Positions 16,802-22,768 of a stretch of 64,000 nt of DNA are shown here, in pieces. The position numbers were made by a program, and so were the translations under genes. Within the stretch, counting starts at the first letter, position 1. Every line of letters starts with the position of its first letter. Under the pieces are notes generated by a model that was not told where the DNA came from, did not search any database, and saw only the letters and a list, made by a program, of their open reading frames with translations. Source of the DNA: Sandaracinaceae bacterium (GTDB lineage Bacteria; Myxococcota_A; Polyangia; Polyangiales; Sandaracinaceae); contig JBGAQA010000003.1 of assembly GCA_044220955.1 (NCBI GenBank), forward strand, positions 1 to 64,000, given 5' to 3'.

Positions 16802-17821
16802 ATGCGTCGGACCCGGCTCGCCGCCCTGTCCATCGCGACACTCGTCGCGGCGGCCTGCGATCGCCCGGCAGATCCCGCCTGGATCGCCGAGCGACTCGCC
16901 GAGGCACGCGAGCGCGACACCGCGGCGCGGGCGGCGCACGCCAGCGACGACGAGCGTACGCGGTGGACGCTCGAGGTGGTCGGACCCGACGGCACGAGCG
17001 AGGTGCTCCCGTTCGCCGCGCTCTCGAGCTTGCCCCGCACGGAGGTGACGACGACCGAGCCCGACGAGGCGGCGCACCACGACGTGGTGCGCTTCGCCGG
17101 CGTGCGCATCTCCGACCTCGTCGGCCGTGCGGCGGCGGGCGAGCACGCCCCCGACGTCACGCTCCTCGCGTCCGACGGGTTCCGCGCGACGCTGCAGATG
17201 GAGGACGTGAGGCTCTTCCCCATCATCCTCGCGACCGACGCGAACGGCGCCCCGCTCGGACGCGATCATGGCGGCCCGCTCTACTCGGTCTTCCCGACCA
17301 TGCAGTTCCCCGAGCTCGGCACGCGCTACACGTCGAGCGCCTGGGTGTTCTACGTCACGCACGTGATCGTGGGGACCGCGCCGCCGAGCGTGCGCGTCGG
17401 GGATCGCGTGGTCACGGCCGCCGAGCTCGAGGCGCTGCCGACCACCTCGCTCTCGGCCGTGGTCGGCTACCGGACGGGCTGGCCCAGCGAGCCGGTGCGT
17501 GTGCACGGCGTGTTGCTCCGCGACCTGCTCGCGCTGGCCGGGGCCACCCTCGGAGACGGCGACCGCGTCCGCGTGATGTCGCGCGCGCCCGTGACGCGCG
17601 GCGAGGGCCGGCCGACGCTGCTCTCCGCCGACGACGTGCGGAGCGCAGACGTGATCCTCGCGCTCCGCTACGGCGAGAGCCGCGAGCCGATCCCCTCCCG
17701 GCTCGGCGGACCGCTCGCGCTCGCGTTCCCGACGAGCGTCGCCGCCCACCTCACCGACCACGACTGGCTGACCTTCGTGGATGCCCTGAGCGTCGTCCCG
17801 GCTGCCACGGAGGTGCCGTGA
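16802..17821 (+). CDS. Lipoprotein with two tandem Cys-less molybdopterin-oxidoreductase (SUOX/PruR-like) domains
   Basis: Lipobox AAAC; repeats FAGVRISDL..SDGF..IILA..GGPLYSVFP and VHGVLLRDLL..VILA..GGPLALAFP; no Cys after the lipobox. Confidence 0.75.
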   Translation: MRRTRLAALSIATLVAAACDRPADPAWIAERLAEARERDTAARAAHASDDERTRWTLEVVGPDGTSEVLPFAALSSLPRTEVTTTEPDEAAHHDVVRFAGVRISDLVGRAAAGEHAPDVTLLASDGFRATLQMEDVRLFPIILATDANGAPLGRDHGGPLYSVFPTMQFPELGTRYTSSAWVFYVTHVIVGTAPPSVRVGDRVVTAAELEALPTTSLSAVVGYRTGWPSEPVRVHGVLLRDLLALAGATLGDGDRVRVMSRAPVTRGEGRPTLLSADDVRSADVILALRYGESREPIPSRLGGPLALAFPTSVAAHLTDHDWLTFVDALSVVPAATEVP

Positions 17822-19326
17822 GCGACGATCGCGTCTCGTCGCTGCTCGAGTCGGGGCCGAAGGGGCGCGTGCGCTTTCCGATCTTCCTGCAGCTCGTGCT
17901 GACGGTCACCGGCGTGGTCACGCTCGTGCTGAGCGTCATCATCGTGCTCTGGGTGCTCGCACAGACGCGGACGGTGCGCCGCGAGATCGAGGGCCAGGCG
18001 ACGACGCTGGCGACGGCGATGGCCGACGCGTGGGGCAACGAGCTGACCGACGAGAACTGGAACCAGATCCGGTACCAGATCCGCTCGGCGATGGAGCGCA
18101 ATCACGACTTCGTCTACTTCGTGGTGAGTGACTCGCGCCGCGGCGACCGCGTCGTCGCCGCGGGTCCGGACGACGTGATCGGGAGCTACGTGCCCGACCT
18201 GGTGCCCGCCGAGGTCACCGAAGCGGCGCTCGCCGCGGAGGCCGAGCCGGTCATGCGCGAGACGATCCTCCTGCGGGAGGTCGTGCTCGACGGACAGACG
18301 CGCGCACGGGCGGGTACGCCCGTGGTCGAGGCCGCGGCGGCGCTGAACCTCGGCGGGCATCGCGTGGGCGTCCTCCGGGTCGGCGTGTCCCTGCGTCGCG
18401 TGGAGCAGGCGCGCCGCACGATCTTGCGCGATGCGCTCTCGGCCGCGCTGGTCTGCATGCTCCTCGGGATCGTGGTGGCGTGGCTGGTCGCGCGCCAGTT
18501 CACCGCGCCCATTCGCGCGCTCGAGCAGAGCGTCTCGCGCATGGCCGGCGGGGATCTCGCACACCGTTCGAGCGCGAGCTCCCGGAGCGAGATCGGGGCG
18601 CTCGGAGCGGCCGTCAACCGCATGGCCGTGGCGCTCGAGAAGAGCTTCGCCCGCCTGCGCGGCACGCTCGCGTCTTTCGAGCGCTTCGTGCCGCGCAAGT
18701 TCCTCCAGGTGATCGCGCCCGCGGGGATCGAGAACATCCAGGTCGGCGTGCGCGCCGAGCACACGATCACGATCCTCTTCTCGGACATCCGGGGCTACAC
18801 GTCGCTCAGCGAGAGCAGCACGCCGGAGCAGATGTTCCAGCTGCTCAACGAGTACCTCCCCGAGATGGGCGCGGTGATCGACGCGAACGGCGGCTTCATC
18901 GACAAGTACATCGGTGACGCGATCATGGCGCTCTTCGACGATCCGCACGCCGACGGAGCGCTCCGCGCGGCGGCGGCCATGCGCGTTCGGCTCGCGGCCC
19001 TGAACGCCCGCCGGATCGCCCGCGGCGAGAAGCCCTTCGAGATCGGCATCGGCCTGCACCGCGGCCAGGTCATCATGGGCACGGTCGGGTTCTCGTCGAA
19101 GATCGAGTCGACCGTCATCGGTGACGCCGTGAACTGCGCCTCGCGTGTCGAGGGGCTCACCAAGCAGTACGGCGTTCACGTGCTCGCGACCGGGGCGGTC
19201 GTCGACGCGCTCGAGCAGCCCGCGGAGTTCACGCTCCGCGTCGTCGACGCCGCCGCGAAGATCCGCGGCAAGGACGAGCCCATCCAGCTCTACACGATCG
19301 ACGCCGAGAGCGCCGACGGGCGCTGA
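17818..19326 (+). CDS. Membrane class III adenylate cyclase (TM-periplasmic sensor-TM-HAMP-cyclase)
   Basis: FSDIRGYT, DKYIGDAIM, GIGLHRG, TVIGDAVNCASRVE; HAMP PIRALE..SEIGALGAAVNRM; GTGA overlap with the upstream stop. Confidence 0.93.
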   Translation: MSDDRVSSLLESGPKGRVRFPIFLQLVLTVTGVVTLVLSVIIVLWVLAQTRTVRREIEGQATTLATAMADAWGNELTDENWNQIRYQIRSAMERNHDFVYFVVSDSRRGDRVVAAGPDDVIGSYVPDLVPAEVTEAALAAEAEPVMRETILLREVVLDGQTRARAGTPVVEAAAALNLGGHRVGVLRVGVSLRRVEQARRTILRDALSAALVCMLLGIVVAWLVARQFTAPIRALEQSVSRMAGGDLAHRSSASSRSEIGALGAAVNRMAVALEKSFARLRGTLASFERFVPRKFLQVIAPAGIENIQVGVRAEHTITILFSDIRGYTSLSESSTPEQMFQLLNEYLPEMGAVIDANGGFIDKYIGDAIMALFDDPHADGALRAAAAMRVRLAALNARRIARGEKPFEIGIGLHRGQVIMGTVGFSSKIESTVIGDAVNCASRVEGLTKQYGVHVLATGAVVDALEQPAEFTLRVVDAAAKIRGKDEPIQLYTIDAESADGR

Positions 19327-20007: not shown

Positions 20008-21402
20008 TCAATCTGGTTGGAAGACACGCTCCTGCGTGTAGTCGTCGTCGTAGTACTGCCACGCGCGGTCGAAGGTGATCGCGCCGAAGGTGTTGACGGC
20101 GATCGCGAAGAGCAGCGCAGCATGGAAGCCGCCACGCAGCGGGCGGCCACCGAGCGCGAGCAGGGTGATCAGCACGATCATGTAGTCGAGCGAGAAGCGG
20201 TAGCCGAACTGGACCCAACCGCTGTTCTGGTACATCAGGTCGCTCAGACAGACGAGCGCCGCGGGCAGGTAGAGGCCGACCATCCGCGCATCGACTCGCT
20301 TCTTCGGGAAGAAGAGCAGGAGCAGCGGCGGCGTGGTGACCCAGAGCGCCAGTCCGTGCCGGCTGACGATCAGGTGTGGCTCGTTCGCGGTGAGCCAGGG
20401 CAGCGACGCGCAGAAGATCGCGAGGTTCTTCGAGAGGTAGTGGTAGTTGACCAGGCCCCAGCGCGCGATGCGCGCGTGCCAGGCGATGATCAGGTAGCGG
20501 TGTCCGAACTCGAACGGATGGCCCCAGCGCGCGTGGTTCATCCACATCGCGACGCCACCGATCACCAGGATCGGCGCCGCGAAGGGCGCGAGCTTCTTCA
20601 CGACGTCGCGCCACGCCACGCCGGCCAGGAACGCGCGCAGACGCCGGGCGGCGCCCGCCTCGTCGCCCGAAGGGATCTCGGGCGCGCTCGCGACGCGGCA
20701 CGTTCGCAGGAGCTCGATCAGGAACACGAGCGCCAGGAGCGACATCGTGGGCCGCGTCATGAAGATGCAGCCCAGCACGAGCCCGGCGAGCGCCGGGCGC
20801 CGCCCCTCGAGCGCGAAGAGCAGGTAGAGCGGCAAGAGGGTGCTCGCGACGACGTGCGCCGCGAACCACACCGTCCCCTGCACCGCGACGAAGAAGAACA
20901 CCGTGCCGAAGGCGAACATCGCGGTCAGCGTCAGGTTCTCGCGTGGCGTGCGCCCGCTCGCGCCGCGCTCGGACAGATCACGCAGCAGCACGTAGAGAAA
21001 GGCTGGCGCGAGCCCCGCACAGAGCGCCCAGAAGAGCGCGTCGCGCACGGCCGTCCCCCAGATCGCCACCAGCGGCAGCACGAGCAGGGCCGGGAAGGGC
21101 GGGAACGACACGTACCAGTGCTGCGTGTCGGTCGTGTGGGTGAACGCCGACTGCGGGCAGACGTCGTCGATCGACGCGTCGTAGCAGGCCCAGTCGTTGG
21201 TCCCGGGCGGGCGGTTGTCGATGACGCCCAGCTGGCCGGAGAGCCAGCTGGCCGCGAGATGCACGAAGTGGTTGTCCGGGGTCGGCCCCTCGACGCGCGT
21301 GCCGAGCATCGCCACGTACACCGCCGCCGCGAGGACGTAGATGGTGAGTGGCGCCTTGATGCGCGCCCAGCGCGGCGAGCCCGACATGAGGGCCGGAACC
21401 AT
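20008..21402 (-). CDS. Polytopic membrane protein, possibly a GT-C fold glycosyltransferase
   Basis: About 10 TM helices, extracytoplasmic loop after TM1, YVSFPPFPALL, TRP, NHARWGHPFEFG. Start 21402 or 21387. The ORF-track extension to 21720 looks non-coding. Confidence 0.7.
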   Translation of the reverse strand: MVPALMSGSPRWARIKAPLTIYVLAAAVYVAMLGTRVEGPTPDNHFVHLAASWLSGQLGVIDNRPPGTNDWACYDASIDDVCPQSAFTHTTDTQHWYVSFPPFPALLVLPLVAIWGTAVRDALFWALCAGLAPAFLYVLLRDLSERGASGRTPRENLTLTAMFAFGTVFFFVAVQGTVWFAAHVVASTLLPLYLLFALEGRRPALAGLVLGCIFMTRPTMSLLALVFLIELLRTCRVASAPEIPSGDEAGAARRLRAFLAGVAWRDVVKKLAPFAAPILVIGGVAMWMNHARWGHPFEFGHRYLIIAWHARIARWGLVNYHYLSKNLAIFCASLPWLTANEPHLIVSRHGLALWVTTPPLLLLFFPKKRVDARMVGLYLPAALVCLSDLMYQNSGWVQFGYRFSLDYMIVLITLLALGGRPLRGGFHAALLFAIAVNTFGAITFDRAWQYYDDDYTQERVFQPD

Positions 21403-21437
21403 AGCCGAATTCGGGTCGCGGCCCGGACCCGCTCGCG

Positions 21438-21478
21438 AAAAGACGAAAGCCCGCGACCTCTCGGTAGCGGGCTCTCGC
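21438..21478 (-). terminator. Intrinsic terminator
   Basis: Minus strand CGAGAGCCCGC-UACC-GAGA-GGUC-GCGGGCUUUCG then UCUUUU; GNRA loop; one G-U pair valid only on this strand. Confidence 0.75.
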
Positions 21479-21641
21479 TTCACCCGAGCGTCCGTCCCCG
21501 GAGGGAGGCACTCTCGGAGGATCTTTCGGTGGGTGACGAGCGCGCTCGCCAGTGGCCACCTCACGCGCCAGTCGCCCCGGAGGGCCGACCGGCGGATCGC
21601 TCGCAGAAACAGGCGCACGAAGCCCCGTCCTCGATCAATCG
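21438..21641 (-). ncRNA. Candidate structured small RNA or cis-regulatory leader (family unknown)
   Basis: Bounded by a sigma54-type promoter and a terminator; two hairpins capped by C-UCCG-G; atypical codon use. Confidence 0.5.
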
Positions 21642-21651
21642 GGTGATCCGA

Positions 21652-21668
21652 CGCAAGGGGTGTGCCTG
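21652..21668 (-). promoter_or_regulatory. sigma54 (-24/-12) promoter
   Basis: CAGGCACACCCCTTGCG = GG-N10-GC, close to consensus TGGCAC-N5-TTGC. Confidence 0.6.
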
Positions 21669-21701: not shown

Positions 21702-22247
21702 GTGCGCGTTCCGCTGACACTGCTCGCGCTCGCGACGCTGCTCGCCGGCTGCCAGCACCGCGTCCGCTACCCGCTCACCGGCCAGGCGGGCGTCGTCACG
21801 CTCGTCGCGCTGCACCCTCACCCGCGCCGTCCCGAGCTGTGGACGATGAACTACCAGCAGGAAGGGTTCATCCCGGTCTGCACGCCGGTGGTGATCGAGT
21901 CGGTCACCGATCGCGAGATGCAGTTCTCCGTGCCCTCGCTCGGCGTGCGCTTCCACTACCGCGTGGACGCTGCGCTCGGTGAGCCGTTCCCCGCGCACCT
22001 CGACCGCGTGTTCGGGACCCAGTGCCCGCCGGTGATCGAGCAGCTCTCGGCGATCGATCGGGACGGCATCGCGCGTGGTGTCGTGCAGGTCGGGATGACG
22101 CGGCGGGGCGTGCTCTTGGCGCTCGGCGCGCCGCCGGCGCACGCGACGCCGAGCCTCGATCTGCCCGTGTGGCGCTACTGGCGCAGCCGGCACAACACGT
22201 TCGAGGTGCGCTTCGTCGGCGACGTCGTCAGCGAGGTCGACCGTTGA
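21702..22247 (+). CDS. Lipoprotein with SmpA/OmlA (BamE)-like C-terminal domain
   Basis: GTG start, lipobox LAGC; GMTRRGVLLALGAPP..WRYW..VRF motif. Confidence 0.75.
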   Translation: MRVPLTLLALATLLAGCQHRVRYPLTGQAGVVTLVALHPHPRRPELWTMNYQQEGFIPVCTPVVIESVTDREMQFSVPSLGVRFHYRVDAALGEPFPAHLDRVFGTQCPPVIEQLSAIDRDGIARGVVQVGMTRRGVLLALGAPPAHATPSLDLPVWRYWRSRHNTFEVRFVGDVVSEVDR

Positions 22248-22768
22248 GCCGGGCGGACGCGGCATCCGACGGCGCCATCCGCGAGGCGCGGCCCGACGAT
22301 CTGCCGCGCTACGCCGTCATCGAGCGCGCCGCGGCCACGCTCTACGCGCCCTGGGGCCTGGACGGGGTGTTCGAGAGCACGCCGACCGAGCCGGAGCGCG
22401 TCGCGCGCGCGATCGCCGAGCACGATCTGATCGTCGCGGCGGACCCGCAAGACGTGATGATCGGCTACGCGCTCGTCGGGATGGAGGGGACCGATCTGCA
22501 CCTCGAGGAGCTCGCGGTCGAGCCCGCGCACGGCCGGCGCGGCCACGGCACGGCGCTGCTCTGCGCGACCATCGCGCTCGGGCGCTCCCGAGGCGCGCGC
22601 CGCATCACGCTGGTGACCCTCGACTTCGTTCCCTTCGGGAAGGCCTTCTACGAGCGCTGCGGGTTCGCTGTGCTCGCGCCCACCGCGCTCTCACCGCAGC
22701 TACGGGAGCTCGCTCCGCCGGACGCGCGCGACGGGCGCGTGGCGATGGCGCTCTCGCTGAGCGGCTGA
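22244..22768 (+). CDS. GNAT family N-acetyltransferase
   Basis: IREARPDDL, HLEELAVEPAHGRRGHG, FYERCGF. Confidence 0.88.
   Translation: MSRADAASDGAIREARPDDLPRYAVIERAAATLYAPWGLDGVFESTPTEPERVARAIAEHDLIVAADPQDVMIGYALVGMEGTDLHLEELAVEPAHGRRGHGTALLCATIALGRSRGARRITLVTLDFVPFGKAFYERCGFAVLAPTALSPQLRELAPPDARDGRVAMALSLSG

Follow-up and report, generated by a model that had tools for sequence, protein, structure and literature searches.

The stretch of DNA analyzed here (the window, 64,000 nt) comes from the genome (G000) of an uncultured Sandaracinaceae myxobacterium, which has a GC content of 72.5% and is 88% complete. The element described below occupies a gap between divergent genes, with a membrane-protein gene on one side and a pair of genes coding for a putative lipoprotein and a GNAT acetyltransferase (together 21702-22768, plus strand) on the other; in genomes G002 and G005 of the same genus, the GNAT gene itself is directly divergent from the sigma54-type promoter. 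The membrane protein, which was matched in all 32 family genomes, found no match in a Pfam/NCBIfam search. Its neighbours in the Atlas carry names of the RgtA/B/C/D-like type, and one cluster has PMT_2 on 13% of its members, which suggests, as a lead, a GT-C glycosyltransferase fold for this family-wide protein. The first-pass annotation correctly placed this gene 3′ of the terminator, but its start, set ca. 36 nt downstream, is most likely the ATG at 21387, 50 nt after the terminator; another ATG, at 21402, sits within a -10-like box. A start at the GTG at 21618 is contradicted by in-frame stops in three of the six homologues, with three different frames represented. Elsewhere in the window (16802-19326), a gene with a molybdopterin-oxidoreductase domain is coupled to a HAMP adenylate/guanylate cyclase gene, a pairing kept in four of the five genus loci compared.

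Table 1. Features of the candidate RNA locus and its neighbours, in window coordinates.
Feature	Position	Strand	Basis or remark
Sigma54-type -24/-12 box GGCAC-N5-TTGC, AGGCACACCCCTTGC	21653..21667	-	kept in 6/6 homologues
Predicted RNA, about 204 nt (198-210 nt in homologues)	21438..21641	-	alignment; start predicted
SL1, imperfect long hairpin whose bulged G is invariant (motif copy 1)	21595..21640	-	17 pairs
SL2, variable hairpin	21566..21594	-	5/28 columns invariant
SL3, hairpin with invariant self-complementary GUGGCCAC and CCAC/C internal loop	21528..21560	-	19/33 columns invariant
A-rich single-stranded linker, most accessible part	21518..21527	-	predicted accessibility; 2/13 columns invariant
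SL4, best-conserved hairpin, with NNCG tetraloop and invariant bulged G (motif copy 2)	21484..21517	-	24/34 columns invariant
Intrinsic terminator, GNRA loop (GAGA here), U-tail	21438..21478	-	kept in 6/6 homologues
-10-like hexamer TATGGT, putative own promoter of downstream gene, outside RNA	21398..21403	-	motif in orthologous loci
Downstream membrane protein, GT-C/PMT-like glycosyltransferase candidate	20008..21387	-	Atlas neighbours
Putative lipoprotein gene, divergent, without known family	21702..22247	+	same place in 4/6 homologous loci
GNAT acetyltransferase	22244..22768	+	Pfam PF00583 E=1e-11

The GG-N10-GC box that the first-pass annotation had taken for a sigma54 promoter was found where it had been reported (21667-21653, minus strand), and the retention of its motif in every homologue is consistent with a promoter of this type. 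Eleven of its 16 columns are invariant in the six-way alignment, while the next 11 columns contain no invariant position. Throughout this genome, correctly spaced copies of the motif are intergenic in 25 of 37 cases, compared with 6/77, 10/27 and 9/75 for wrong spacings, these counts being based on crude gene calls with 90% coding. In the usual sigma54 geometry, transcription starts 12 nt past the -12 box, which would put the start of the RNA at ca. 21641; the 5′ end of SL1 coincides with this expected position. The host genome contains rpoN and some 40 full-length activator-domain matches; the nearest activator-domain match on the same contig is weak and lies 11 kb from the element. No activator for the sigma54-type promoter was identified, nor was an enhancer in the interval where one is expected, 80-150 bp upstream; the DNA there differs among homologues, two groups of which have different coding genes in that place.

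Other sigma54-like boxes were seen in the host genome. At C111:212726, C21:11720, C276:26698 and C83:4803, such a box opens a repeated palindromic intergenic element, which is either REP-like or a small mobile element and is unrelated to the candidate sRNA by nhmmer; one 13-nt core is present in 7 copies genome-wide. At C268:105458 (plus strand), a consensus sigma54 box is followed by ca. 350 nt of pyrimidine-rich non-coding DNA and then a short ORF.

Folding of the predicted RNA yields five hairpins, SL1-SL4 and the terminator (Table 1). The two UCCG-capped hairpins reported in the first-pass annotation are present at 21594-21566 (SL2) and 21517-21484 (SL4), while SL1 and SL3, both better conserved than SL2, had been overlooked. 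The twin C-UCCG-G signature turned out to be particular to the host genome: the SL2 loop, UCCG here, reads GAAA, GAAA and GAGA in three homologues, and the remaining two have a shortened hairpin. The hexamer CCUCCG does occur three times in the host element (0.14 copies expected per 231 nt), but its counts across the six homologues are 3, 0, 1, 1, 0 and 0, and the suggested anti-Shine-Dalgarno role of CCUCC is not supported. The GAGA-capped terminator and its U-tail were found as described (21478-21438, minus strand); the terminator search returned one where 0.3 were expected. On the minus strand, to which the first-pass annotation had assigned the G-U pairs and the UNCG and GNRA loops, the loops of the six homologues swap among GNRA and NNCG tetraloops.

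In SL1, 96% of cells are paired, five pairs are changed on both sides and 22 of 46 columns are invariant; its loop is variable apart from one invariant U. SL3 can fold in two registers, each of which leaves CCAC/CAC open, and dimerization through its palindrome brought a computed energy gain equal to that of any hairpin. The A-rich linker varies in both length and sequence, with a 13-nt insertion in the metagenome homologue L216. SL4 is paired in 98.7% of cells and its loop is UCCG in four homologues, UUCG in one and CACG in another; since 10 of its 13 pairs never vary, they are uninformative on SL4 structure. A bulged-G helix motif, 5′-GY[G]CC-3′/5′-GGRC-3′, is present once in SL1 and once in SL4 (alignment positions 44-47/53-57 and 175-179/193-196), and both copies are invariant in all six homologues. 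The motif amounts to five GC-rich bases in a GC-rich genome, and its repetition may have arisen by chance.

The homologues come from the host genome, four of the five other genomes of the genus and one metagenome contig (L216); the element was not found in the other 26 family genomes searched. A BLAST search for relatives, which the first-pass annotation had proposed, over 61 genomes gave strong matches (E <= 1.5e-18) in those four genus genomes and short, weak ones elsewhere. A covariance model built on SL3-SL4, for which 133 candidates were scored in each genome, recovered five of the 32 family genomes, the same as BLAST, and a promoter-plus-terminator pattern recovered the same five of 32, with 0 matches for the reversed control. 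The counts for the family (32 genomes, 30 loci) take in the unpublished genome G026, in which the element is absent and whose locus is among the 28 discussed below that have a -10-like box; every conclusion stands when it is left out. Applied to one genome per species, the pattern gave 108 matches, all of which were inspected and 80 of which were scored with the covariance model (3 strong); four carry the promoter, with no new sequence among them. Matches in Gemmatimonadota were dropped, since by translated motif they resemble the antisense strand of what we take to be a Mur-ligase gene. The full-length covariance model, run on five chosen genomes, retrieved only 16-19-bit terminators or coding DNA, which were rejected. 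The metagenome scan gave at least 121 matches, with one real homologue (L216) among the matches listed, and the pattern scan of viral contigs gave none. In the single sequencing run that was used, no contig covered the element. Loci around 15 GNAT orthologues and locus L058 contained nothing convincing as a homologue. No paralogue was found in the host genome using nhmmer with two alignments and inspection of 12 sigma54 sites, so the element is single-copy there. These filtered searches may have failed to pick up homologues at a greater distance.

Genome G001, which at this locus is the most distant one of the genus, shares these neighbours and lacks the RNA, which is therefore dispensable in the genus. 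The G001 locus (L058; G001:C79, about 20340-20450) is a gap of 116 bp flanked by the GNAT gene and the membrane gene, again divergent, with a hairpin and U-tract but without the box or the RNA body; the hairpin is possibly a remnant or an unrelated terminator.

Alignment of the six homologues demonstrates that the promoter motif, the predicted stems and bulges and the terminator are conserved. Ninety-three percent of 358 cells are paired, which none of 500 shuffles equalled and slid controls approached only to 40-44%; related sequences can, however, beat shuffles, and the six represent about four independent lineages. As for covariation, which had been named as a check, 11 of 60 pairs show a two-sided change, of which at least two (at the SL2 base and the SL4 tip) look like alignment slips. 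Identity over SL3 and SL4 is 73-91% between genomes, compared with 53-65% for the four-fold sites in the gene next door, where one close genome pair reaches 76%; synonymous sites are thus mostly saturated. Folding energy is less telling. The whole RNA is more stable than shuffled sequences here (z = -3.1) and in two homologues (z = -4.1 and -4.6), but without the terminator the value falls to -0.6 here and to between -1.2 and -2.5 in five homologues. Since a sample of 189 of the 683 other intergenic gaps of the host genome, taken at the better of two strands, had a median z of -1.0, with 25 gaps below -2.5, the value for the body alone is within the range of other gaps, and energy alone is no proof of a structured body. 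The conservation nevertheless points, as the first-pass annotation had it, to a structured minus-strand RNA of ca. 200 nt; this candidate sRNA family of one Sandaracinaceae-type genus is uncatalogued, and its conservation is real.

That no known family accounts for the element, as first noted, agrees with an Rfam scan of the region, which returned four chance-level matches (E 0.8-8.8) far below cut-offs. We also found no earlier description in the literature, mostly open, on myxobacterial and Myxococcota sRNAs, where supplementary ncRNA tables could hold the motif. Pxr of Myxococcus xanthus (RF01812), introduced by the first-pass annotation as a sigma54-dependent precedent, is an analogue in organization: it is myxobacterial and intergenic, and has a sigma54 promoter (in our case, the motif), stem-loops and a terminator, as reported in PMC5568312 and PMC5684412. 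The absence of Hfq and a GNAT gene next door are also shared, by the accounts in PMC5684412 and PMC11928866. The likeness does not extend to the covariance model, the length, the C-rich loop or the synteny. The Pxr model had no match at E<=10 in the region or in the host genome (150 of 1772 candidates scored) and none above cut-off over 151 class and 151 phylum genomes, the single class match lying in a coding region; these scans thus yielded no positive control above the cut-off. Pxr is 108 nt long with three stem-loops, whereas the candidate is about 204 nt long with five and has no C-run in the SL1 loop. The pxrK/pxrR (nla19) two-component pair is absent beside the element, whose neighbours are the lipoprotein, GNAT and GT-C-like genes, and GNAT is divergent here but downstream of Pxr. 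The account in PMC5684412 places Pxr in Cystobacterineae only. In another myxobacterium (genome G329), a Pxr-like match of 31 bits (cut-off 80) was noted at L317:1460-1600, with a sigma54-like box, a C-run loop and a terminator; its flanking genes resemble neither pxrR nor GNAT, and it is possibly a divergent Pxr away from the usual synteny.

GlmY of Enterobacteriaceae, a RapZ decoy described in PMC4152352, likewise combines a sigma54 promoter and a comparable length with a conserved central stem-loop structure, and is stated there to work with no pairing to mRNA. Unlike GlmY/GlmZ, the candidate has no covariance-model match and no activator pair at the locus. RapZ is encoded in all five genomes checked, both with and without the element, and the C-terminal tail of the host RapZ is, by eye, not rich in lysine and arginine, the property tied to RNA binding in the account of PMC5737377. 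RapZ is therefore a poor candidate partner. CsrB/RsmZ and CrcZ are terminator-ended protein-sponge RNAs with repeated protein-binding motifs, and CrcZ is sigma54-driven. In contrast to them, the candidate has no repeated single-stranded GGA or A-rich motifs among its invariant columns, and neither CsrA nor Hfq was found in the host genome at its 88% completeness.

On the sequence evidence, the locus has a promoter motif of its own, a conserved non-coding body and its own terminator, as a sigma54-dependent trans-acting sRNA would, and this supports the standalone sRNA put forward in the first-pass annotation. We regard a standalone non-coding RNA gene with its own promoter and terminator as quite likely. 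For the fuller reading, a standalone trans-acting RNA recognized by a protein, we would give a probability of roughly 0.45; we infer the transcription, the sigma54 dependence, the in vivo fold and the protein binding that it entails. An enhancer-binding protein would activate sigma54 polymerase at the box, and an RNA of ca. 204 nt would be made, independently of both neighbouring genes, and end at the terminator. It would fold into four hairpins and act in trans by presenting its shape to a protein, as a decoy or scaffold, without an exposed pairing seed, much as GlmY does for RapZ. Candidate protein-binding sites are both copies of the bulged-G helix, one each in SL1 and SL4, as well as the internal loop of SL3 with its CCAC. 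In SL1-SL4, 59 of the invariant columns are paired, and the unpaired ones are bulges, the internal loop and loop bases. Because invariance is found in the stems and bulges, while the open linker has only 2 of 13 columns invariant, protein recognition fits better than an exposed seed. No protein partner of the predicted RNA was identified.

What would be new is the candidate family; the class of sigma54-dependent small RNAs to which it would belong is already known. In the literature that we found, Pxr is the one well-studied myxobacterial sRNA, and a second family with a sigma54-type promoter would be an independent case in a different myxobacterial lineage. The mechanism of Pxr without Hfq is described as still open in PMC5684412. 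The candidate family comes with an alignment already made, with particular residues that can be mutated and, in G001, with a natural control for loss or gain. Its weight is limited by its narrow range, a single genus (five genomes) and one contig from a metagenome, and by the RNA being a prediction. A more specific and rather doubtful picture is that of a second, independently evolved sigma54 regulatory RNA in myxobacteria, outside the Pxr suborder, titrating a new dimeric RNA-binding protein by means of its two bulged-G helices in a lineage without any Hfq or CsrA found; if true, identifying this partner would define a class of RNA-binding regulator that is new.

Of the alternatives to protein recognition, the one deserving most attention, though unlikely, is that the same sigma54 RNA is a base-pairing sRNA. 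After processing or unwinding, CCAC/CACCCAC of SL3 or a strand of SL4 would pair with mRNA leaders. Pxr, a myxobacterial sigma54 sRNA, sets a precedent, being cut to a short active form and working independently of Hfq according to PMC10217877 and PMC5684412. The CCAC/CAC left open in each SL3 register would be available for such pairing, and invariant stems without covariation could be kept for it. However, invariant unpaired runs in the RNA body do not exceed 4 nt, the longest being CCAC of SL3. A target search, suggested along with the original description, produced low-complexity duplexes only, none conserved, and the best of those predicted in the host genome involve the tip of SL3, which is not conserved. 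For 12 words chosen as conserved or accessible, the complements showed no convincing excess near called starts, an excess of GTG-containing words there being an artefact of start calling, and no conserved pairing with the three neighbouring genes was found.

It is improbable that the effect is a local one, with a parked sigma54 polymerase or transcription from the box repressing the back-to-back lipoprotein/GNAT promoter and the RNA being secondary. The geometry would allow it, as in every homologue the -24 box and the divergent start are only ca. 25-40 nt apart, and PMC11928866 gives the neighbouring GNAT gene pxrA as the best-supported target of Pxr, a GNAT gene flanking our element too. Such an effect leaves the selection on SL1, SL3 and SL4 unexplained, however, and the GNAT gene is at the same place in G001 without the element; PxrA, moreover, is reported in the account of PMC11928866 from only a few Myxococcus species.

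A little less probable still is that there is no functional RNA, and that the element is either a terminator accompanied by DNA sites that are conserved, such as a downstream enhancer at the palindrome GTGGCCAC, or a gene for a small peptide. The ordinary folding energy of the body and the failure to find an upstream enhancer would agree with this, as would the sequence GTG GCC ACY GGC, which opens a reading 'MATG' in all six homologues. No reading frame is kept through the element beyond ca. 12 codons in the six homologues, however, and the compensatory changes in SL1 and in the SL3/SL4 tips, the G-U pairs and the tetraloop swaps fit an RNA.

The other suggestion of the first-pass annotation, an attenuator (or riboswitch) leader for the glycosyltransferase-like gene downstream, now has little to recommend it. 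The element is on the same strand, its terminator ends 25-75 nt before the start codon in all six cases, and it is known from this locus only. Yet the gene is universal in the family, while the element is upstream of it in 5 of 30 inspected loci. Terminator-free folds cost 12-21 kcal/mol and differ between homologues, and no shared antiterminator was found. In addition, 28 of the 30 orthologous loci have a TANNNT hexamer 6-12 nt ahead of an in-frame start, where shuffles would give 0.9; wherever the element exists, this hexamer is downstream of its terminator. The conservation of this hexamer near the start makes it likely that the gene has its own promoter, and its mRNA is probably near-leaderless; as a motif, this putative promoter is shown to be independent of the element. 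TANNNT is present 6-12 nt upstream of 976 of 6303 crudely called starts in G000, which suggests many near-leaderless mRNAs in this genome.

The chance that the standalone RNA mimics a sigma54 promoter, as 6S RNA mimics sigma70 promoters, is close to negligible: SL4 contains an invariant GUGCC complementary to the promoter GGCAC box, but the partner strand GGAC is one base short of a true mimic. 6S RNA (RF00013) itself is similar to the candidate in its length near 200 nt and in being highly paired; the candidate differs in forming a row of hairpins, not a single rod with a central bubble, and has no covariance-model match to it. The element is neither the 6S RNA nor the tmRNA of the host genome, which lie elsewhere: the tmRNA is at G000:C166:13818-14193, and the 6S RNA candidate, at G000:C257:58287-58476, scores 42 bits, slightly short of the 46.4 required.
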